Source of the DNA: Escherichia coli
GTDB taxonomy: Bacteria; Pseudomonadota; Gammaproteobacteria; Enterobacterales; Enterobacteriaceae
Length of the DNA stretch: 64,000 nucleotides
Assembly: GCF_003018235.1 (NCBI RefSeq)
Contig: NZ_CP027437.1
Reading direction: 5' to 3' (one strand)
The position numbers were made by a program, and so were the translations under genes. Below, in pieces: positions 11,039 through 16,335 of this stretch; position 1 is the stretch's first letter; each line of letters opens with the position of its first letter. Below the pieces are notes generated by a model. The model had not been told where the DNA came from. It searched no databases and was given only the letters and a program-made list of their open reading frames with translations.

Positions 11039-13177
11039 ATGACACCGCATGTGATGAAACGAGACGGCTGCAAAGTGCCGTTTAAATCAGAGCGCATCAA
11101 AGAAGCGATTCTGCGTGCAGCTAAAGCAGCGGAAGTCGATGATGCCGATTATTGCGCCACTGTTGCTGCGGTTGTCAGCGAGCAGATGCAGGGCCGCAAC
11201 CAGGTGGATATCAATGAGATCCAGACCGCAGTTGAAAACCAGCTGATGTCGGGTCCATACAAACAACTGGCTCGTGCTTACATCGAGTACCGTCACGATC
11301 GCGACATTGAACGTGAAAAACGCGGTCGCCTGAACCAGGAGATCCGTGGTCTGGTCGAGCAGACCAACTCCTCGTTACTCAACGAAAACGCCAACAAAGA
11401 CAGCAAGGTGATTCCAACCCAGCGCGACCTGCTGGCCGGGATCGTGGCTAAACACTATGCACGCCAGCACCTGCTGCCGCGTGACGTGGTGCAGGCACAT
11501 GAACGTGGTGATATTCACTATCACGATCTCGATTACTCACCGTTCTTCCCGATGTTCAACTGCATGTTGATCGACCTGAAAGGCATGCTGACCCAGGGCT
11601 TTAAAATGGGGAACGCCGAGATTGAACCGCCGAAGTCGATCTCTACGGCAACCGCGGTAACTGCGCAGATTATTGCCCAGGTCGCCAGCCATATTTATGG
11701 CGGCACCACCATTAACCGTATCGATGAAGTGCTGGCACCGTTTGTCACCGCCAGCTACAACAAACATCGCAAGACCGCAGAAGAGTGGAACATCCCGGAC
11801 GCCGAAGGCTACGCTAACTCTCGTACCATCAAAGAGTGCTACGATGCCTTCCAGTCGCTGGAGTACGAAGTAAACACCCTGCATACCGCCAACGGTCAAA
11901 CGCCGTTTGTAACCTTTGGTTTTGGTCTGGGCACCAGCTGGGAGTCGCGCCTGATTCAGGAATCGATCCTGCGTAACCGTATCGCCGGCCTCGGTAAAAA
12001 CCGTAAAACGGCGGTGTTCCCGAAACTGGTGTTTGCGATTCGCGATGGCCTGAACCATAAAAAAGGCGATCCGAACTACGACATCAAACAGCTGGCGCTG
12101 GAGTGCGCAAGCAAGCGCATGTATCCGGATATCCTGAACTACGATCAGGTAGTGAAAGTCACCGGTTCGTTTAAAACCCCGATGGGCTGCCGCAGCTTCC
12201 TCGGCGTGTGGGAAAATGAAAACGGCGAGCAGATCCACGATGGTCGTAACAACCTCGGCGTGATCAGCCTGAACCTGCCGCGTATTGCGCTGGAAGCAAA
12301 AGGCGATGAAGCCACCTTCTGGAAGCTGCTGGATGAACGTCTGGTGCTGGCACGTAAGGCGCTGATGACCCGTATCGCCCGTCTGGAAGGCGTGAAGGCA
12401 CGCGTAGCTCCTATCCTCTATATGGAAGGTGCTTGTGGCGTGCGTCTGAATGCTGACGATGATGTTTCTGAAATCTTCAAAAACGGTCGTGCATCTATTT
12501 CGCTGGGTTACATCGGCATCCACGAAACCATTAACGCGCTGTTCGGCGGCGAGCATGTTTATGACAACGAGCAGCTTCGCGCGAAAGGTATCGCGATTGT
12601 TGAACGTCTGCGTCAGGCAGTGGATCAGTGGAAAGAAGAAACGGGTTATGGTTTCAGTCTCTACAGCACGCCGAGTGAAAACCTGTGCGACCGCTTCTGC
12701 CGTCTCGATACCGCTGAGTTTGGCGTGGTGCCGGGCGTGACCGATAAAGGTTACTACACCAACAGTTTCCACCTTGATGTGGAGAAAAAGGTGAACCCGT
12801 ATGACAAGATCGACTTTGAAGCGCCTTACCCGCCGCTGGCGAACGGTGGTTTCATTTGCTACGGCGAGTATCCAAACATTCAGCACAACCTGAAGGCGCT
12901 GGAAGATGTCTGGGATTACAGCTATCAGCATGTACCGTATTACGGCACCAATACGCCGATCGATGAGTGCTACGAGTGTGGCTTTACTGGCGAGTTCGAG
13001 TGCACCAGCAAAGGCTTCACTTGCCCGAAATGTGGTAACCATGACGCCTCCCGTGTGTCGGTAACTCGCCGCGTGTGCGGATATTTAGGTAGCCCGGATG
13101 CACGTCCATTTAACGCCGGTAAGCAGGAAGAAGTTAAGCGCCGCGTTAAACATTTGGGGAATGGGCAGATAGGTTAA
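11039..13177 (+). CDS. nrdD: anaerobic ribonucleoside-triphosphate reductase
   Basis: 712-aa ORF; C-terminal glycyl-radical region and zinc-ribbon cysteines (CYECG...CPKCG) visible. Confidence 0.95.
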   Translation: MTPHVMKRDGCKVPFKSERIKEAILRAAKAAEVDDADYCATVAAVVSEQMQGRNQVDINEIQTAVENQLMSGPYKQLARAYIEYRHDRDIEREKRGRLNQEIRGLVEQTNSSLLNENANKDSKVIPTQRDLLAGIVAKHYARQHLLPRDVVQAHERGDIHYHDLDYSPFFPMFNCMLIDLKGMLTQGFKMGNAEIEPPKSISTATAVTAQIIAQVASHIYGGTTINRIDEVLAPFVTASYNKHRKTAEEWNIPDAEGYANSRTIKECYDAFQSLEYEVNTLHTANGQTPFVTFGFGLGTSWESRLIQESILRNRIAGLGKNRKTAVFPKLVFAIRDGLNHKKGDPNYDIKQLALECASKRMYPDILNYDQVVKVTGSFKTPMGCRSFLGVWENENGEQIHDGRNNLGVISLNLPRIALEAKGDEATFWKLLDERLVLARKALMTRIARLEGVKARVAPILYMEGACGVRLNADDDVSEIFKNGRASISLGYIGIHETINALFGGEHVYDNEQLRAKGIAIVERLRQAVDQWKEETGYGFSLYSTPSENLCDRFCRLDTAEFGVVPGVTDKGYYTNSFHLDVEKKVNPYDKIDFEAPYPPLANGGFICYGEYPNIQHNLKALEDVWDYSYQHVPYYGTNTPIDECYECGFTGEFECTSKGFTCPKCGNHDASRVSVTRRVCGYLGSPDARPFNAGKQEEVKRRVKHLGNGQIG

Positions 13178-13196
13178 TCCTTCCCCCTCACCCTAA

Positions 13197-13218
13197 CCCT
13201 CTCCCTCAAGGGAGAGGG
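13197..13218 (+). terminator. hairpin CCCTCTCCC-TCAA-GGGAGAGGG between nrdD and nrdG (no T-run)
   Basis: 9-bp perfect stem read from sequence; lacks a U-tract so probably a stability or attenuation element rather than a full terminator. Confidence 0.3.
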
Positions 13219-13361
13219 TACCGTTCCGTGCCCCTTCCTGATTCCCGACATAATGAATTGCCTCTGGCCAGTTGGTGTCGTCGCAAGGTGGCAAATGCGT
13301 AGCATCGGGGGACTTCGCCCGTACGCACCAGAGCAGTCATGGCGTCAATTGAGAATCGAAA

Positions 13362-13826
13362 ATGAACTTTCATCAGTACTATCCTGTCGACATCGTCAAC
13401 GGCCCCGGCACTCGCTGCACCCTGTTTGTCTCCGGGTGTGTTCATGAATGCCCCGGTTGCTATAACAAAAGCACCTGGCGGGTAAATTCCGGTCAGCCAT
13501 TTACCAAAGCAATGGAAGACCAGATCATTAACGATCTAAATGACACTCGCATCAAACGCCAGGGGATTTCCCTCTCCGGCGGCGATCCGCTGCATCCGCA
13601 AAACGTGCCGGATATTCTGAAACTGGTACAACGAATCCGCGCCGAATGTCCGGGTAAAGACATTTGGGTGTGGACAGGCTATAAACTCGACGAACTCAAC
13701 GCTGCGCAAATGCAGGTTGTTGATTTGATTAACGTACTGGTCGACGGCAAATTTGTGCAGGATTTAAAAGACCCTTCCCTGATCTGGCGCGGCAGCAGCA
13801 ATCAGGTGGTGCATCATTTGCGTTAG
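13362..13826 (+). CDS. nrdG: anaerobic ribonucleotide reductase activating protein (radical SAM)
   Basis: 154-aa ORF; cysteine cluster CTLFVSGCVHECPGC. Confidence 0.9.
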   Translation: MNFHQYYPVDIVNGPGTRCTLFVSGCVHECPGCYNKSTWRVNSGQPFTKAMEDQIINDLNDTRIKRQGISLSGGDPLHPQNVPDILKLVQRIRAECPGKDIWVWTGYKLDELNAAQMQVVDLINVLVDGKFVQDLKDPSLIWRGSSNQVVHHLR

Positions 13827-14117
13827 TCACTCATCCAGCCGTTTAGTCGCGTCTTCATAAACGGCTGAGTTCTCTCTCTTACCAATAGCTATCACCAACA
13901 CGAGCAACTCTTTATCGTTAACCTGATAAACCAGGCGATATCCCTGTGTGCGCAGCTTAATTTTGTAGCAGTCCGGTAAATCCCGCAGTTTAGCCGATGG
14001 ATTGCGCGGCCTTTTCAGCACATCCTCAAGCTTTTTTTTAAATTGTTCCCGGACTGTCACGCCCAGTTTTTGCCACTCTTTCAGCGCCCGCGGATCAAAC
14101 GCCAGCTCATAGTTCAT
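13827..14117 (-). CDS. RelE/ParE-family mRNA interferase toxin
   Basis: 96-aa product from ATG 14117 (MNYELAFDPRALKEWQKLG...CYKIKLRTQGYRLVYQV...IGKRE); about 60% identical by eye to K-12 RelE as recalled; overlaps the antitoxin stop by 11 nt. Confidence 0.8.
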   Translation of the reverse strand: MNYELAFDPRALKEWQKLGVTVREQFKKKLEDVLKRPRNPSAKLRDLPDCYKIKLRTQGYRLVYQVNDKELLVLVIAIGKRENSAVYEDATKRLDE

Positions 14118-14349
14118 CCAGTCGGACCTTAATGGCCTCTTGTGGGTTGGCCAGTCGTTCCCTGACAGTGCGTAACAAGGCTTCTTCACTATCACTGACA
14201 GTGAGCGTTTTTACCGGCATTCGTCCATTTTCCGCAACGTACTGAAACAGCAGTCGCACTGCTTCAGTAGGCGTGATATTTAATTTTTCCAGCACCGCAT
14301 AAGCCTCATTTTTCAGTTTGTCATCCAGGCGGACGTTAAGTGTGGCCAT
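14107..14349 (-). CDS. RelB/DinJ-family antitoxin
   Basis: 80-aa ORF MATLNVRLDDKLKNEAYAVLEKLNITPTEAVRLL...; strong resemblance to K-12 RelB as recalled; RBS GGAGG upstream. Confidence 0.8.
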   Translation of the reverse strand: MATLNVRLDDKLKNEAYAVLEKLNITPTEAVRLLFQYVAENGRMPVKTLTVSDSEEALLRTVRERLANPQEAIKVRLDEL

Positions 14350-14373
14350 TATGCCTCCGGTAATTATGAAAAG

Positions 14374-14406
14374 TGTAATGCATTATAGCATTACATATGC
14401 ATTACA
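14374..14406. promoter_or_regulatory. candidate RelB/RelE operator: three copies of TGTAATGC/GCATTACA
   Basis: TGTAATGC at 14374-14381, GCATTACA at 14388-14395 and 14399-14406 (direct repeats one helical turn apart), 25-57 bp upstream of the antitoxin ATG. Confidence 0.45.
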
Positions 14407-14507
14407 TTCATTTCTGGAAAACGCCTCGCAAAAATGAGGACGACACGCAGGAATATGCCGTGGTGAAGATAGATATTGCGGTGATTTTACGAAGGGAGAA
14501 GAAAGCG

Positions 14508-14533
14508 TTGGGCGGTAACGTTTCACCGCCCAA
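14508..14533 (-). terminator. hairpin TTGGGCGGT/ACCGCCCAA downstream of cybC
   Basis: 9-bp stem with 8-nt loop immediately after the cybC stop; U-rich tract on the minus-strand transcript is imperfect. Confidence 0.35.
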
Positions 14534-14540
14534 TAAGGAA

Positions 14541-14930
<390 letters not shown>

Positions 14931-14982
14931 TCACTTCCTTTTTTATTATGAAGATTTGGCGCGGCAGGTCGCGCCAGTTTTT

Positions 14983-16335
14983 TTACTGCCCGGCGATTTT
15001 CATCTCCGGCAACAGCACAGAACCACACTGTATATTACTGCGTGTTTCAATATCGTTACCGACGGTGACAATATTGCGCCACATATCTTTCAAATTACCT
15101 GCGATGGTGATTTCACTAACAGGATACTGAATTTCGCCATTCTCTACCCAGAAGCCCGCTGCACCACGGGAATAATCACCGGTAATGGCACTCACGCCCT
15201 GGCCCATCAGCTCCGTCACCACCAGCCCGGTGCCCATCTCTTTAAGCATTTGTTCGAAGCTTAGCCCTTGTCCGGCAATCCGCCAGTTGTGAATACCGCC
15301 CGCATGTCCGGTGCTTTTCAGCCCCAGTTTCCGCGCCGAGTAGCTGGTCAGCAGCCACTGAGTCAGGATGCCATCTTTGACGATATCGCGGCGCTCGGTG
15401 CGCACACCTTCGCTGTCGAATGGCGTCGACGCCAGCCCTTTCAGCAGATGCGGATGCTCTTCAATGGTCAGCCAGTCCGGCAGAATTTGTTTACCCAGCG
15501 AATCCAGCAGGAAGGTAGATTTACGGTAAACCGATCCACCCGCTATCGCCCCCACCAGATGGCCAAAAAGCCCGGTTGCCACTTCATTGGCAAAAATGAC
15601 CGGCGCTTTCATGGTGGAGAGTTTACGCGGTGACAGGCGCGATAAAGTACGGCGAGCACAGTCGGCCCCAACCCACTCTGGCGTTTGCAGATCGCTCATC
15701 GCACGACCAATGGTGTAGGCGTAATCACGCTCCATATCGCCATTTTCTTCAGCAATTACACAGCTGGAGAGCGAATGACGCGTAGAGCAGTAACCCTGCA
15801 ACATGCCGTGGCTGTTGCCAAAAACTTTGACACCGTAGTGGCTGTTAAAGCTGCCACCTTCGGTATTGGTGATGCGTTTGTCCGCCTGCAATGCTGCCTG
15901 TTCTGCGCGGGCCGCCAGTTCAATGGCTTCATCCGGGGAAACTTCCGCAGGGTGGAACAAGTCGAGATCCGGTGCGTCAAAGGCCAGCAGCTCTTTGTCT
16001 GCCACGCCGGCACAGGGATCTGGCGAGGTATAACGGGCAATATCCAGCGCCGCCTGTACGGTGCGGGCAATGGCCTGCGGGCTTAAATCGGTAGACGATG
16101 CGCTACCTTTACGGTTCTGGTGATAAACGGTGATCCCCAGCGCGCCATCGCTATTGAATTCAACATTCTCCACTTCACCATAACGCGTGCTTACGCTAAT
16201 GCCGGTGGTCTTGCTGACGGCAACTTCTGCACCGTCCGATTTGACTGAGGCCAACTCCAGCGCAGTGGAAACTGCTTCTTCCAGAATCTTGCGCTGCGCT
16301 TCAACTTGAGAGATTACTTTCATTGCAAGTGCCAT
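14983..16335 (-). CDS. pmbA: metalloprotease PmbA (TldE)
   Basis: 450-aa ORF recognised by similarity to PmbA/TldD family. Confidence 0.9.

Follow-up and report, generated by a model that had tools for sequence, protein, structure and literature searches.

RelE is a ribosome-dependent mRNA endonuclease and RelB is its antitoxin. The K-12 pair (structures 4FXE and 4V7J/4V7K) is encoded in the Qin prophage of Escherichia coli, and a relBE module of the Salmonella Typhimurium chromosome has been listed as STM4449-STM4450 (PMC8708949; also in a table in the retracted PMC3868539). Here we describe a relBE pair that lies directly behind nrdG in a 64,000-nucleotide stretch of E. coli contig NZ_CP027437.1 (assembly GCF_003018235.1); this whole stretch is referred to as the window. 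Like the K-12 system, the pair combines a toxin that aligns colinearly over 94 residues with a Pfam RelB antitoxin, and its overlapping genes are arranged with the antitoxin first. However, the toxin is only ~60% identical to K-12 RelE, and the pair is located in the core chromosome behind nrdG rather than in a prophage. An earlier note on this DNA, made from its letters, had proposed that the pair is a module inserted at the end of nrdG. The analysis presented here points elsewhere: the pair is probably an ancient, vertically inherited and often lost relBE locus behind nrdDG, in which the signal that stops nrdDG transcription would be carried antisense within the last ~15 codons of relE.

The relBE pair behind nrdG

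The features that define the locus are as follows.

13362..13826, + strand: nrdG, anaerobic ribonucleotide reductase activase, 154 amino acids (open reading frame (ORF) list; Pfam Fer4_12, E=1e-56; PGAP)
13824..13829: nrdG/relE junction, where the nrdG stop TAG directly meets TCA, which on the reverse strand is the TGA that ends relE
13827..14117, - strand: relE-type toxin gene, 96 amino acids, actual start ATG at 14117 (phmmer; Pfam)
14107..14349, - strand: relB-type antitoxin gene, 80 amino acids (Pfam RelB, E=6e-16; ORF list; sequence)
14374..14405, - strand: relBE promoter/operator region, TGTAATGC direct and inverted repeats around TATAAT (palindrome flagged by a scan)

Read directly, the junction is ...CAT CAT TTG CGT TAG, where CGT TAG are the last codons of nrdG, and then TCA CTC ATC CAG.... 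The sequence bears out the earlier note in that nrdG and the toxin gene stand tail to tail with zero intergenic bases, as TAG (13824-13826) abuts TCA (13827-13829). The strain CFSAN018748 is 100% identical to the window over 13300-14560, and PGAP annotates the same abutting coding sequences there; the gene order in the window is treC-nrdD-nrdG-relE-relB-cybC-pmbA-yjgA-mpl-fbp. The distance between the nrdG and relE stops is 0 in the window and in loci L003, L006 and L007, and varies from -4 to +9 nt in other genera. Specifically, in 25 other species that contain relE or its 3' end the gap is -4, 0, 3, 4, 5, 6, 8 or 9 nt, with 3 nt being the most common (12 loci). The relE gene of Escherichia carries two extra C-terminal codons (Asp-Glu). 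The absence of any spacer in the window is the Escherichia form of a distance that ranges from -4 to +9 nt across the family, and no chance oddity of one genome.

The toxin matches the E. coli RelE structures 4v7k/4fxe (phmmer E=2e-35, colinear over residues 1-94) as well as the Pfam family ParE_toxin (PF05016, E=7e-15). It retains K52, K54, R61, R81 and Y87 (aligned motifs cyKiKl, gyRl, gkRe and avY), which in K-12 numbering are the active-site residues of the RelE-ribosome structure. The antitoxin gene is the first in the operon, and its 3' end overlaps the start of relE by 11 nt (14107-14117). Upstream of relB, the operator palindrome AGATGTAATGCTATAATGCATTACATCT is also present in Trabulsiella and Citrobacter, and indeed in all loci that carry the toxin-antitoxin (TA) pair in every other genus examined; its TGTAAT-type half-sites presumably resemble K-12 relO, and the operon is probably autoregulated at this operator. 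Because of the RelE match with its catalytic positions, the Pfam RelB assignment, the 11-nt overlap and the conserved palindrome, the pair is, by sequence criteria, an intact chromosomal relBE type II toxin-antitoxin operon. It is an already-known kind of TA system, annotated as such by PGAP, and no new kind of system.

In every comparison between genera the toxin diverges faster than the antitoxin (mean DNA p-distance of 0.30 vs 0.205), and across loci L011-L080 protein identity to the window is 59-74% for the toxin and 79-91% for the antitoxin. The fast divergence had raised the idea that the toxin was replaced in Escherichia, which was rejected, as in all genera compared RelE has changed more than RelB.

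Age and probable repeated loss of the locus

The surroundings of nrdG were surveyed in the best 80 Enterobacteriaceae species representatives from a genome-collection search with NrdG, a sample that includes nrdG 3' regions with and without the pair. The states found after nrdG are listed below.

Intact convergent relB-relE: 20 loci
Damaged relE with intact relB: 5 loci
relB only: 2 loci
Remnants: about 7 loci

The pair is present or remnant in about 34 of the 80 species, which belong to at least 10 genera, and about 47 of the 80 have no detectable trace of it. Intact copies occur in Citrobacter, Salmonella, Kluyvera, Enterobacter, Trabulsiella, Klebsiella pneumoniae, Kosakonia, Silvania and Pseudocitrobacter. 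The locus is conserved on both flanks. In TA-positive genomes of at least five genera, the stop codon of a neighboring PRD-regulator gene lies at exactly +598 from the nrdG stop, versus +2 to +49 in TA-minus genomes. Among the TA-minus spacers at least six sequence types with no relation to each other can be told apart, as expected from independent deletions. In addition, relB and nrdG DNA distances are correlated (Mantel r=0.59, p~5e-4), and the divergence of relB (0.205) is no smaller than that of nrdG (0.175). From the arrangement and junctions shared by at least 10 genera, the divergence that tracks nrdG, and the remnants and deletion scars in TA-minus genomes, we conclude at the sequence level that relBE is ancestral in the genome of the window and that its K-12-type absence is derived. 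The proposal that the module had been inserted at the end of nrdG does not survive this comparison; the same abutting arrangement in genomes where the pair is ancestral, which the earlier note had itself named as evidence against insertion, is what the other genera show.

Decay at this locus always strikes the toxin first: among the 80 loci, seven combine an intact antitoxin with a toxin gene that is damaged or missing, and none keeps a toxin alone. All six Escherichia representatives retain relBE-derived sequence, with decayed toxins in E. albertii and E. whittamii. One route of toxin loss can be read from the window itself, where an 8-bp direct repeat brackets relE.

13831..13838 (first copy) and 14114..14121 (second copy): 8-bp direct repeat TCATCCAG

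When these copies recombine, exactly 283 bp are lost, comprising relE and the hairpin described below, which leaves an orphan 79-residue RelB (...VRLDE) that is again 0 bases from nrdG. This toxin-only deletion is seen in E. coli O145 (L002 2464-2480), in ~61 E. coli genomes and in Escherichia L008 and L009. A similar event is observed in Trabulsiella guamensis (loci with this deletion type: L008, L009 and L020). In Escherichia sp. MOD1-EC7003 (L005 3960-4025), the whole module was deleted between TTGCG(G) microhomologies (13818-13823 and 14476-14484 in the window), and the new nrdG stop, a TGA, comes from sequence that in the window is situated upstream of the relB promoter. Smaller remnants include an 18-nt piece of relB in C. 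sedlakii and a 49-nt piece of the relB 3' end in T. guamensis, as well as relE 3' ends in K. oxytoca, C. amalonaticus S646 and one metagenome-assembled genome. The remnants in L034, L074 and L083 retain exactly the hairpin end of relE, and in L074 a new stem has replaced the old one before the same T tract. Thus the comparison with nrdG 3' regions lacking the pair, which the earlier note had suggested as a check, returns remnants or microhomology deletion scars.

Within E. coli the pair is a minority allele. Among 5426 complete genomes, 4971 (92%) contain the K-12-type short nrdG/cybC junction, 393 (7%) contain relE DNA and 454 contain relB DNA; therefore ~61 genomes keep the antitoxin only. 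In K-12, nrdG ends CGA TGA and is followed by a 44-bp spacer with its own hairpin, after which homology to the window resumes at AGGAATTAACG beside the cybC stop. The spacer forms this single hairpin with -19.5 and -23.3 kcal/mol on its two strands. Aligned with each other, the two alleles differ in that ~710 bp stand in place of 44 bp, and this difference begins within the last codon of nrdG. In NZ_CP076709.1 (E. coli O158:H23, H80) the relE match is split over two places, with 52% coverage at the first, which suggests from the sequence that this toxin gene is interrupted, e.g. by an insertion.

Such a distribution could also be produced by a recent mobile cassette that was inserted exactly at the end of nrdG in this E. 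coli lineage and brought a new nrdG stop with it. In keeping with this idea, no more than 7% of the complete E. coli genomes contain relE, plasmids often carry modules of the relBE type, and the last nrdG codon, the stop and the spacer of K-12 all differ from those of the window, with the boundary of the polymorphism falling in the last codon. We nevertheless consider it very improbable, as the same arrangement and junctions recur in at least 10 genera and diverge in step with nrdG, every other sampled species of Escherichia retains relBE-derived DNA at the locus, and TA-minus genomes contain deletion scars and remnants. No integrase, insertion sequence (IS) or mobility-type repeat boundary was seen between nrdG and cybC in the window, and a search for a donor in the plasmid collection found a best amino-acid identity of 67%, with no true plasmid copy being higher. 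The features of a recent insertion are consequently missing, as the locus spans at least 10 genera, including all six Escherichia representatives, and has neither a mobility signature nor a near-identical donor. The only 'plasmid' toxin match at 100% is NZ_CP134663.1 (H41/H116), a 4.9-Mb E. coli record in PLSDB that is evidently a chromosome. The TA-minus spacers of Citrobacter share about 20 nt with the module at its right end, which by itself is ambiguous for gain versus loss.

A hairpin in the last codons of relE

Just beyond its stop codon, the nrdG-sense strand contains a hairpin followed by a pyrimidine/T-rich tract, both of which lie within the coding sequence of relE.

13836..13867, + strand (nrdG sense): hairpin with a 10-bp stem (13836-13845/13858-13867) and a 12-nt loop, in relE codons 84-94
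13868..13880, + strand: pyrimidine/T-rich tract AGTTCTCTCTCTT after the hairpin, complementary to relE codons 80-84 (K R E N S)

The hairpin begins 10 nt past the nrdG stop and has a nrdG-sense minimum free energy (MFE) of -14.6 kcal/mol (z=-4.1, 0/200 shuffles); the whole element (13836-13880) occupies the region 10-55 nt past the nrdG stop, within relE codons 80-94. After the stem, the window reads TGAGTTCTCT (5 T in 10 nt) and other genera read GATTTTTCTCG, with a mean of 5.2 T per 10 nt over 28 loci. A simple terminator scan flagged the element as a terminator on the + strand of L033 and L014 (C. amalonaticus and S. diarizonae) and left the window hairpin uncalled, so the case is built on folding, comparative and codon evidence. 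The core 8 bp of the stem are kept in 20 of 21 nrdG-linked relE genes (~98% of cells paired), and the 28-locus alignment contains double changes at two stem pairs, namely GC to AU twice and UA to CG four times. The hairpin is absent from the eight relE genes found elsewhere (seven on plasmids and one a second chromosomal copy), whose energies range from 0 to -7 kcal/mol vs a mean of -14.9. The earlier note's statement that no terminator lies between the two genes has to be revised in this light, as the nrdG-sense strand carries a conserved hairpin with a T/pyrimidine tract, a putative terminator, at a distance of 10-55 nt from the end of nrdG.

Codon usage was analyzed in the 21 intact nrdG-linked relE genes. 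Arg93 is encoded by the non-preferred codon CGG in 20 of 21 genes, whereas the four other invariant arginine sites use six codons each. Ala85 is GCC in 17 of 18 cases, and Val86 is only GTT or GTC, never GTA or GTG. When 36 comparable sites are ordered by third-base entropy, these three in the stem take places 2, 3 and 5 (P~0.0014); the remaining positions of low entropy use the preferred codon CTG. Lys92 is AAG only in the company of a compensating Val86 to Ala change (GCT), and Arg81, which is located in the tract, has an A-ending codon (CGA/AGA) in 15 of 21 genes. The preferences are also strand-specific: core pairs form in 164 of 168 cells in the nrdG sense vs 148 of 168 in the relE sense, and all 16 of the strand-discriminating cells are G·U in the nrdG sense and C·A in the relE sense, with none of the opposite kind. 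Mean stem energies are -14.9 kcal/mol in the nrdG sense and -11.6 kcal/mol in the relE sense. Together, the frozen synonymous sites, the 16:0 G·U bias and the compensatory changes form a sequence signature of RNA-level selection on the nrdG-sense strand.

These data suggest how the locus may work. The relBE pair would already have followed the nrdDG operon directly when the core Enterobacteriaceae genera had yet to separate, and would have been inherited vertically with many losses. It fills the space from nrdG to the following convergent gene so closely that hardly any DNA is left over, and the nrdDG stop signal would be placed on the antisense strand of relE because there is no intergenic room. 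Transcription of nrdDG would end at the embedded element (the hairpin at 13836-13867 and its T/pyrimidine tract), acting as a putative terminator, which would leave ~45-55 nt at the nrdDG mRNA 3' end complementary to the 3' coding end of relE (its last ~15-18 codons). With the convergent zero-gap layout some overlap of the transcript 3' ends is inevitable; the antisense overlap proposed in the earlier note is plausible, but would be limited in extent and bounded by this putative terminator. The relBE operon appears to lack an intrinsic terminator of its own, as none was found within 265 nt downstream, and its transcripts would run antisense into nrdG, where they would probably be ended by Rho. 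A Rho termination region has been mapped antisense inside nrdG in K-12 MG1655, at coordinate 4460186 (+) (PMC7815308, supplementary file 2), indicating that transcripts from the cybC side already run into nrdG without relBE; it is the only entry at this locus in the K-12 3'-end tables. The sequences themselves show what the genes are, that the arrangement and the hairpin are conserved, and that synonymous sites are constrained with a bias to one strand; from these features we infer the terminator activity for nrdDG, the RNA 3' ends and the Rho termination of relBE.

Several points weigh against this account. The window element is weak by simple terminator rules, with a 12-nt loop, 5 T in 10 nt and no call by the scan, and the Escherichia version, whose loop is long and whose U tract is poor, is the weakest example of the hairpin. 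The covariation consists of few independent events, essentially in Kosakonia lineages, and the shuffle controls ignore relatedness. Part of the conservation is protein constraint, since the stem overlaps conserved residues (A-V-Y and K-R-L). The hairpin is dispensable, because the 283-bp deletion allele persists in ~61 E. coli genomes and two other Escherichia species. A search for published Term-seq or 3'-end data for Salmonella or other TA-positive enterics found none. Finally, the polarity of loss rather than gain rests on parsimony and remnants, not on a reconciled tree.

The same observations can be read in other ways. The hairpin might serve the relBE mRNA, as a 3' stabilizer or a bidirectional terminator near the relE stop; it can form in the relE sense as well (-14.2 kcal/mol, z=-2.8), a scan of 265 nt detected no further intrinsic terminator that could serve relBE, and in many genera CTAAA lies just upstream on the + strand, which gives a short relE-sense U run. 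We think this unlikely, as the 16 of 16 discriminating cells and the mean MFE (-14.9 vs -11.6) favor the nrdG sense, the T-rich tract is on the nrdG-sense side (5.2 vs 3.7 T per 10 nt), the relE-sense tail in Escherichia, UGGAUGAGUGA, is not U-rich, and a terminator placed before the gene's own stop codon would generate a non-stop mRNA. It is also quite unlikely that the hairpin has no RNA function and is a by-product of the conserved A-V-Y ... K-R-L residues and common ancestry, with the two operons reading into each other. The stem does encode conserved residues including the catalytic Y87, the compensatory events are few and relatedness inflates the shuffle statistics, and the orphan-antitoxin allele lacks a hairpin. 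Protein constraint would leave unexplained, however, why four-fold stem sites are frozen on the non-preferred CGG when the same amino acids vary in codon elsewhere in relE, why Val86 avoids GTA and GTG and Lys92 is AAG only with a compensating change, why relE homologues elsewhere that contain K-R or V-Y motifs show no hairpin, and why L074 acquired a new stem before the same T tract. A different idea is that the abutment is a regulatory device, in which FNR-driven anaerobic transcription of nrdDG couples relE/relB to oxygen by collision or antisense RNA. The linkage to nrdG is kept in at least 10 genera although the right neighbor changes (Escherichia, Kosakonia and L071), and at least 45 nt of complementarity would be obligatory if nrdDG ends at the hairpin. 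Inheritance explains the linkage equally well, frequent loss (about 47 of 80 species traceless, 92% of E. coli lacking the pair) speaks against an important role, and a conserved terminator would limit interference rather than promote it; we judge a device of this kind improbable. The account that we prefer remains an old relBE locus whose last codons carry the nrdDG stop signal antisense. It could be extended by supposing that a selfish TA locus became entrenched when the 3' end of its toxin gene was co-opted as the nrdDG terminator, which we regard as a speculative and rather doubtful extension. If true, the co-opted terminator would constrain relE codon choice and explain why decaying copies keep exactly the hairpin end, and the 3' overlap would also couple anaerobic nrdDG expression to the fate of relE mRNA.

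Flanking DNA and comparison with known systems

To the right of relB the window contains the following features.

14412..14434: right edge of the conserved module (ttctggaaaacgcctcGCAaaaa), aligned by eye across 15 loci with 'ttctggataacgcctcTCAaaaac'
14508..14533, - strand: cybC terminator-like hairpin, -18 kcal/mol, z=-4.0, part of the TA-bearing haplotype
14541..14927, - strand: cybC, cytochrome b562 (Pfam E=2.5e-33), the right-hand neighbor in Escherichia only (neighbor census)

The 'ttctggataacgcctcTCAaaaac' motif is the stop of the PRD-regulator gene that adjoins relB in other genera (gene assigned by Pfam). Outside Escherichia, the gene after nrdG(-relBE) is this convergent regulator of ~620 amino acids with PRD/EIIA/HTH domains (L010-L083). 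Escherichia lost it, and the window keeps ~20 nt that align with the boundary at the regulator stop, with cybC next instead. The interval that separates the cybC stop from the relB promoter contains two tandem terminator-like hairpins (14440-14461 and 14508-14533, both on the - strand), which may insulate the relBE promoter from cybC read-through. The cybC-side hairpin (14508-14533) is also kept in Escherichia sp. L005, despite its loss of relBE. The cybC gene has 121 codons in the MG1655 record (L001 3011-3376) vs the full 128 amino acids in the window (14541-14927), with the difference at the 5' end.

On the other side of nrdG, the nrdD-nrdG spacer (13178-13361) measures 184 bp in the window, 157 bp in K-12 and 189 bp in O145; for the most part, the three sequences are not homologous. 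The spacers of K-12 and O145 contain GCCGGATGCG...CCGGCCTAC units that we take to be REP-like, and that of the window contains a CCCTCTCCCTCAAGGGAGAGGG palindrome and a stretch aligning with an element in E. whittamii and Salmonella, which is presumably ERIC-like. An Rfam scan of 13000-15200 yielded a sole match, CRISPR-DR57 at 13173-13221 (E=0.97), which is a chance match.

A literature search on the nrdG/relE/cybC arrangement found nothing relevant. A patchily distributed TA pair that abuts a housekeeping gene looks inserted, yet here it appears to be ancestral and the familiar K-12 layout derived. The locus offers a testable case of a coding sequence that would bear its neighbor's terminator antisense, with measurable constraint on synonymous sites, and it bears on termination in compact convergent gene pairs, on the persistence of decaying TA fragments and on the interpretation of codon usage.

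Among described modules, a close counterpart is the orthologous pair of S. enterica subsp. diarizonae and arizonae, which also directly follows nrdG and encodes RelB and RelE proteins that are 89% and 72-74% identical to those of the window. Unlike the window, its gap is 9 nt rather than 0, its toxin ends KRL rather than KRLDE, and its right-hand neighbor is the PRD regulator rather than cybC. In LT2, STM4449/STM4450 presumably adjoin nrdG as well, judging by the locus-tag order. Plasmid-borne RelE/StbE-type modules (on IncI2, IncF, IncX and small mobilizable plasmids) contain toxins of the same family with 53-67% identity; however, none is a near-identical donor, none contains the hairpin, and in several the partner of the toxin is a Phd/YefM-type antitoxin and not one of the RelB type. 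The K-12-like relE on plasmid pKOXM1B (SEVYSEAVKRI) has no hairpin (MFE of -2.2), whereas the last codons of relE in the window carry one. Finally, the element resembles terminators that are shared by, or embedded in, convergent genes, in which a hairpin and a U-rich tract are located just past the stop with little or no spacer; K-12 itself has a single hairpin in its 44-bp nrdG/cybC spacer. The element in relE differs from such terminators in that it is positioned wholly inside the coding sequence of the partner gene, whose synonymous sites it constrains, and in that its wobble bias is confined to a single strand, the nrdG sense, instead of showing bidirectional symmetry.

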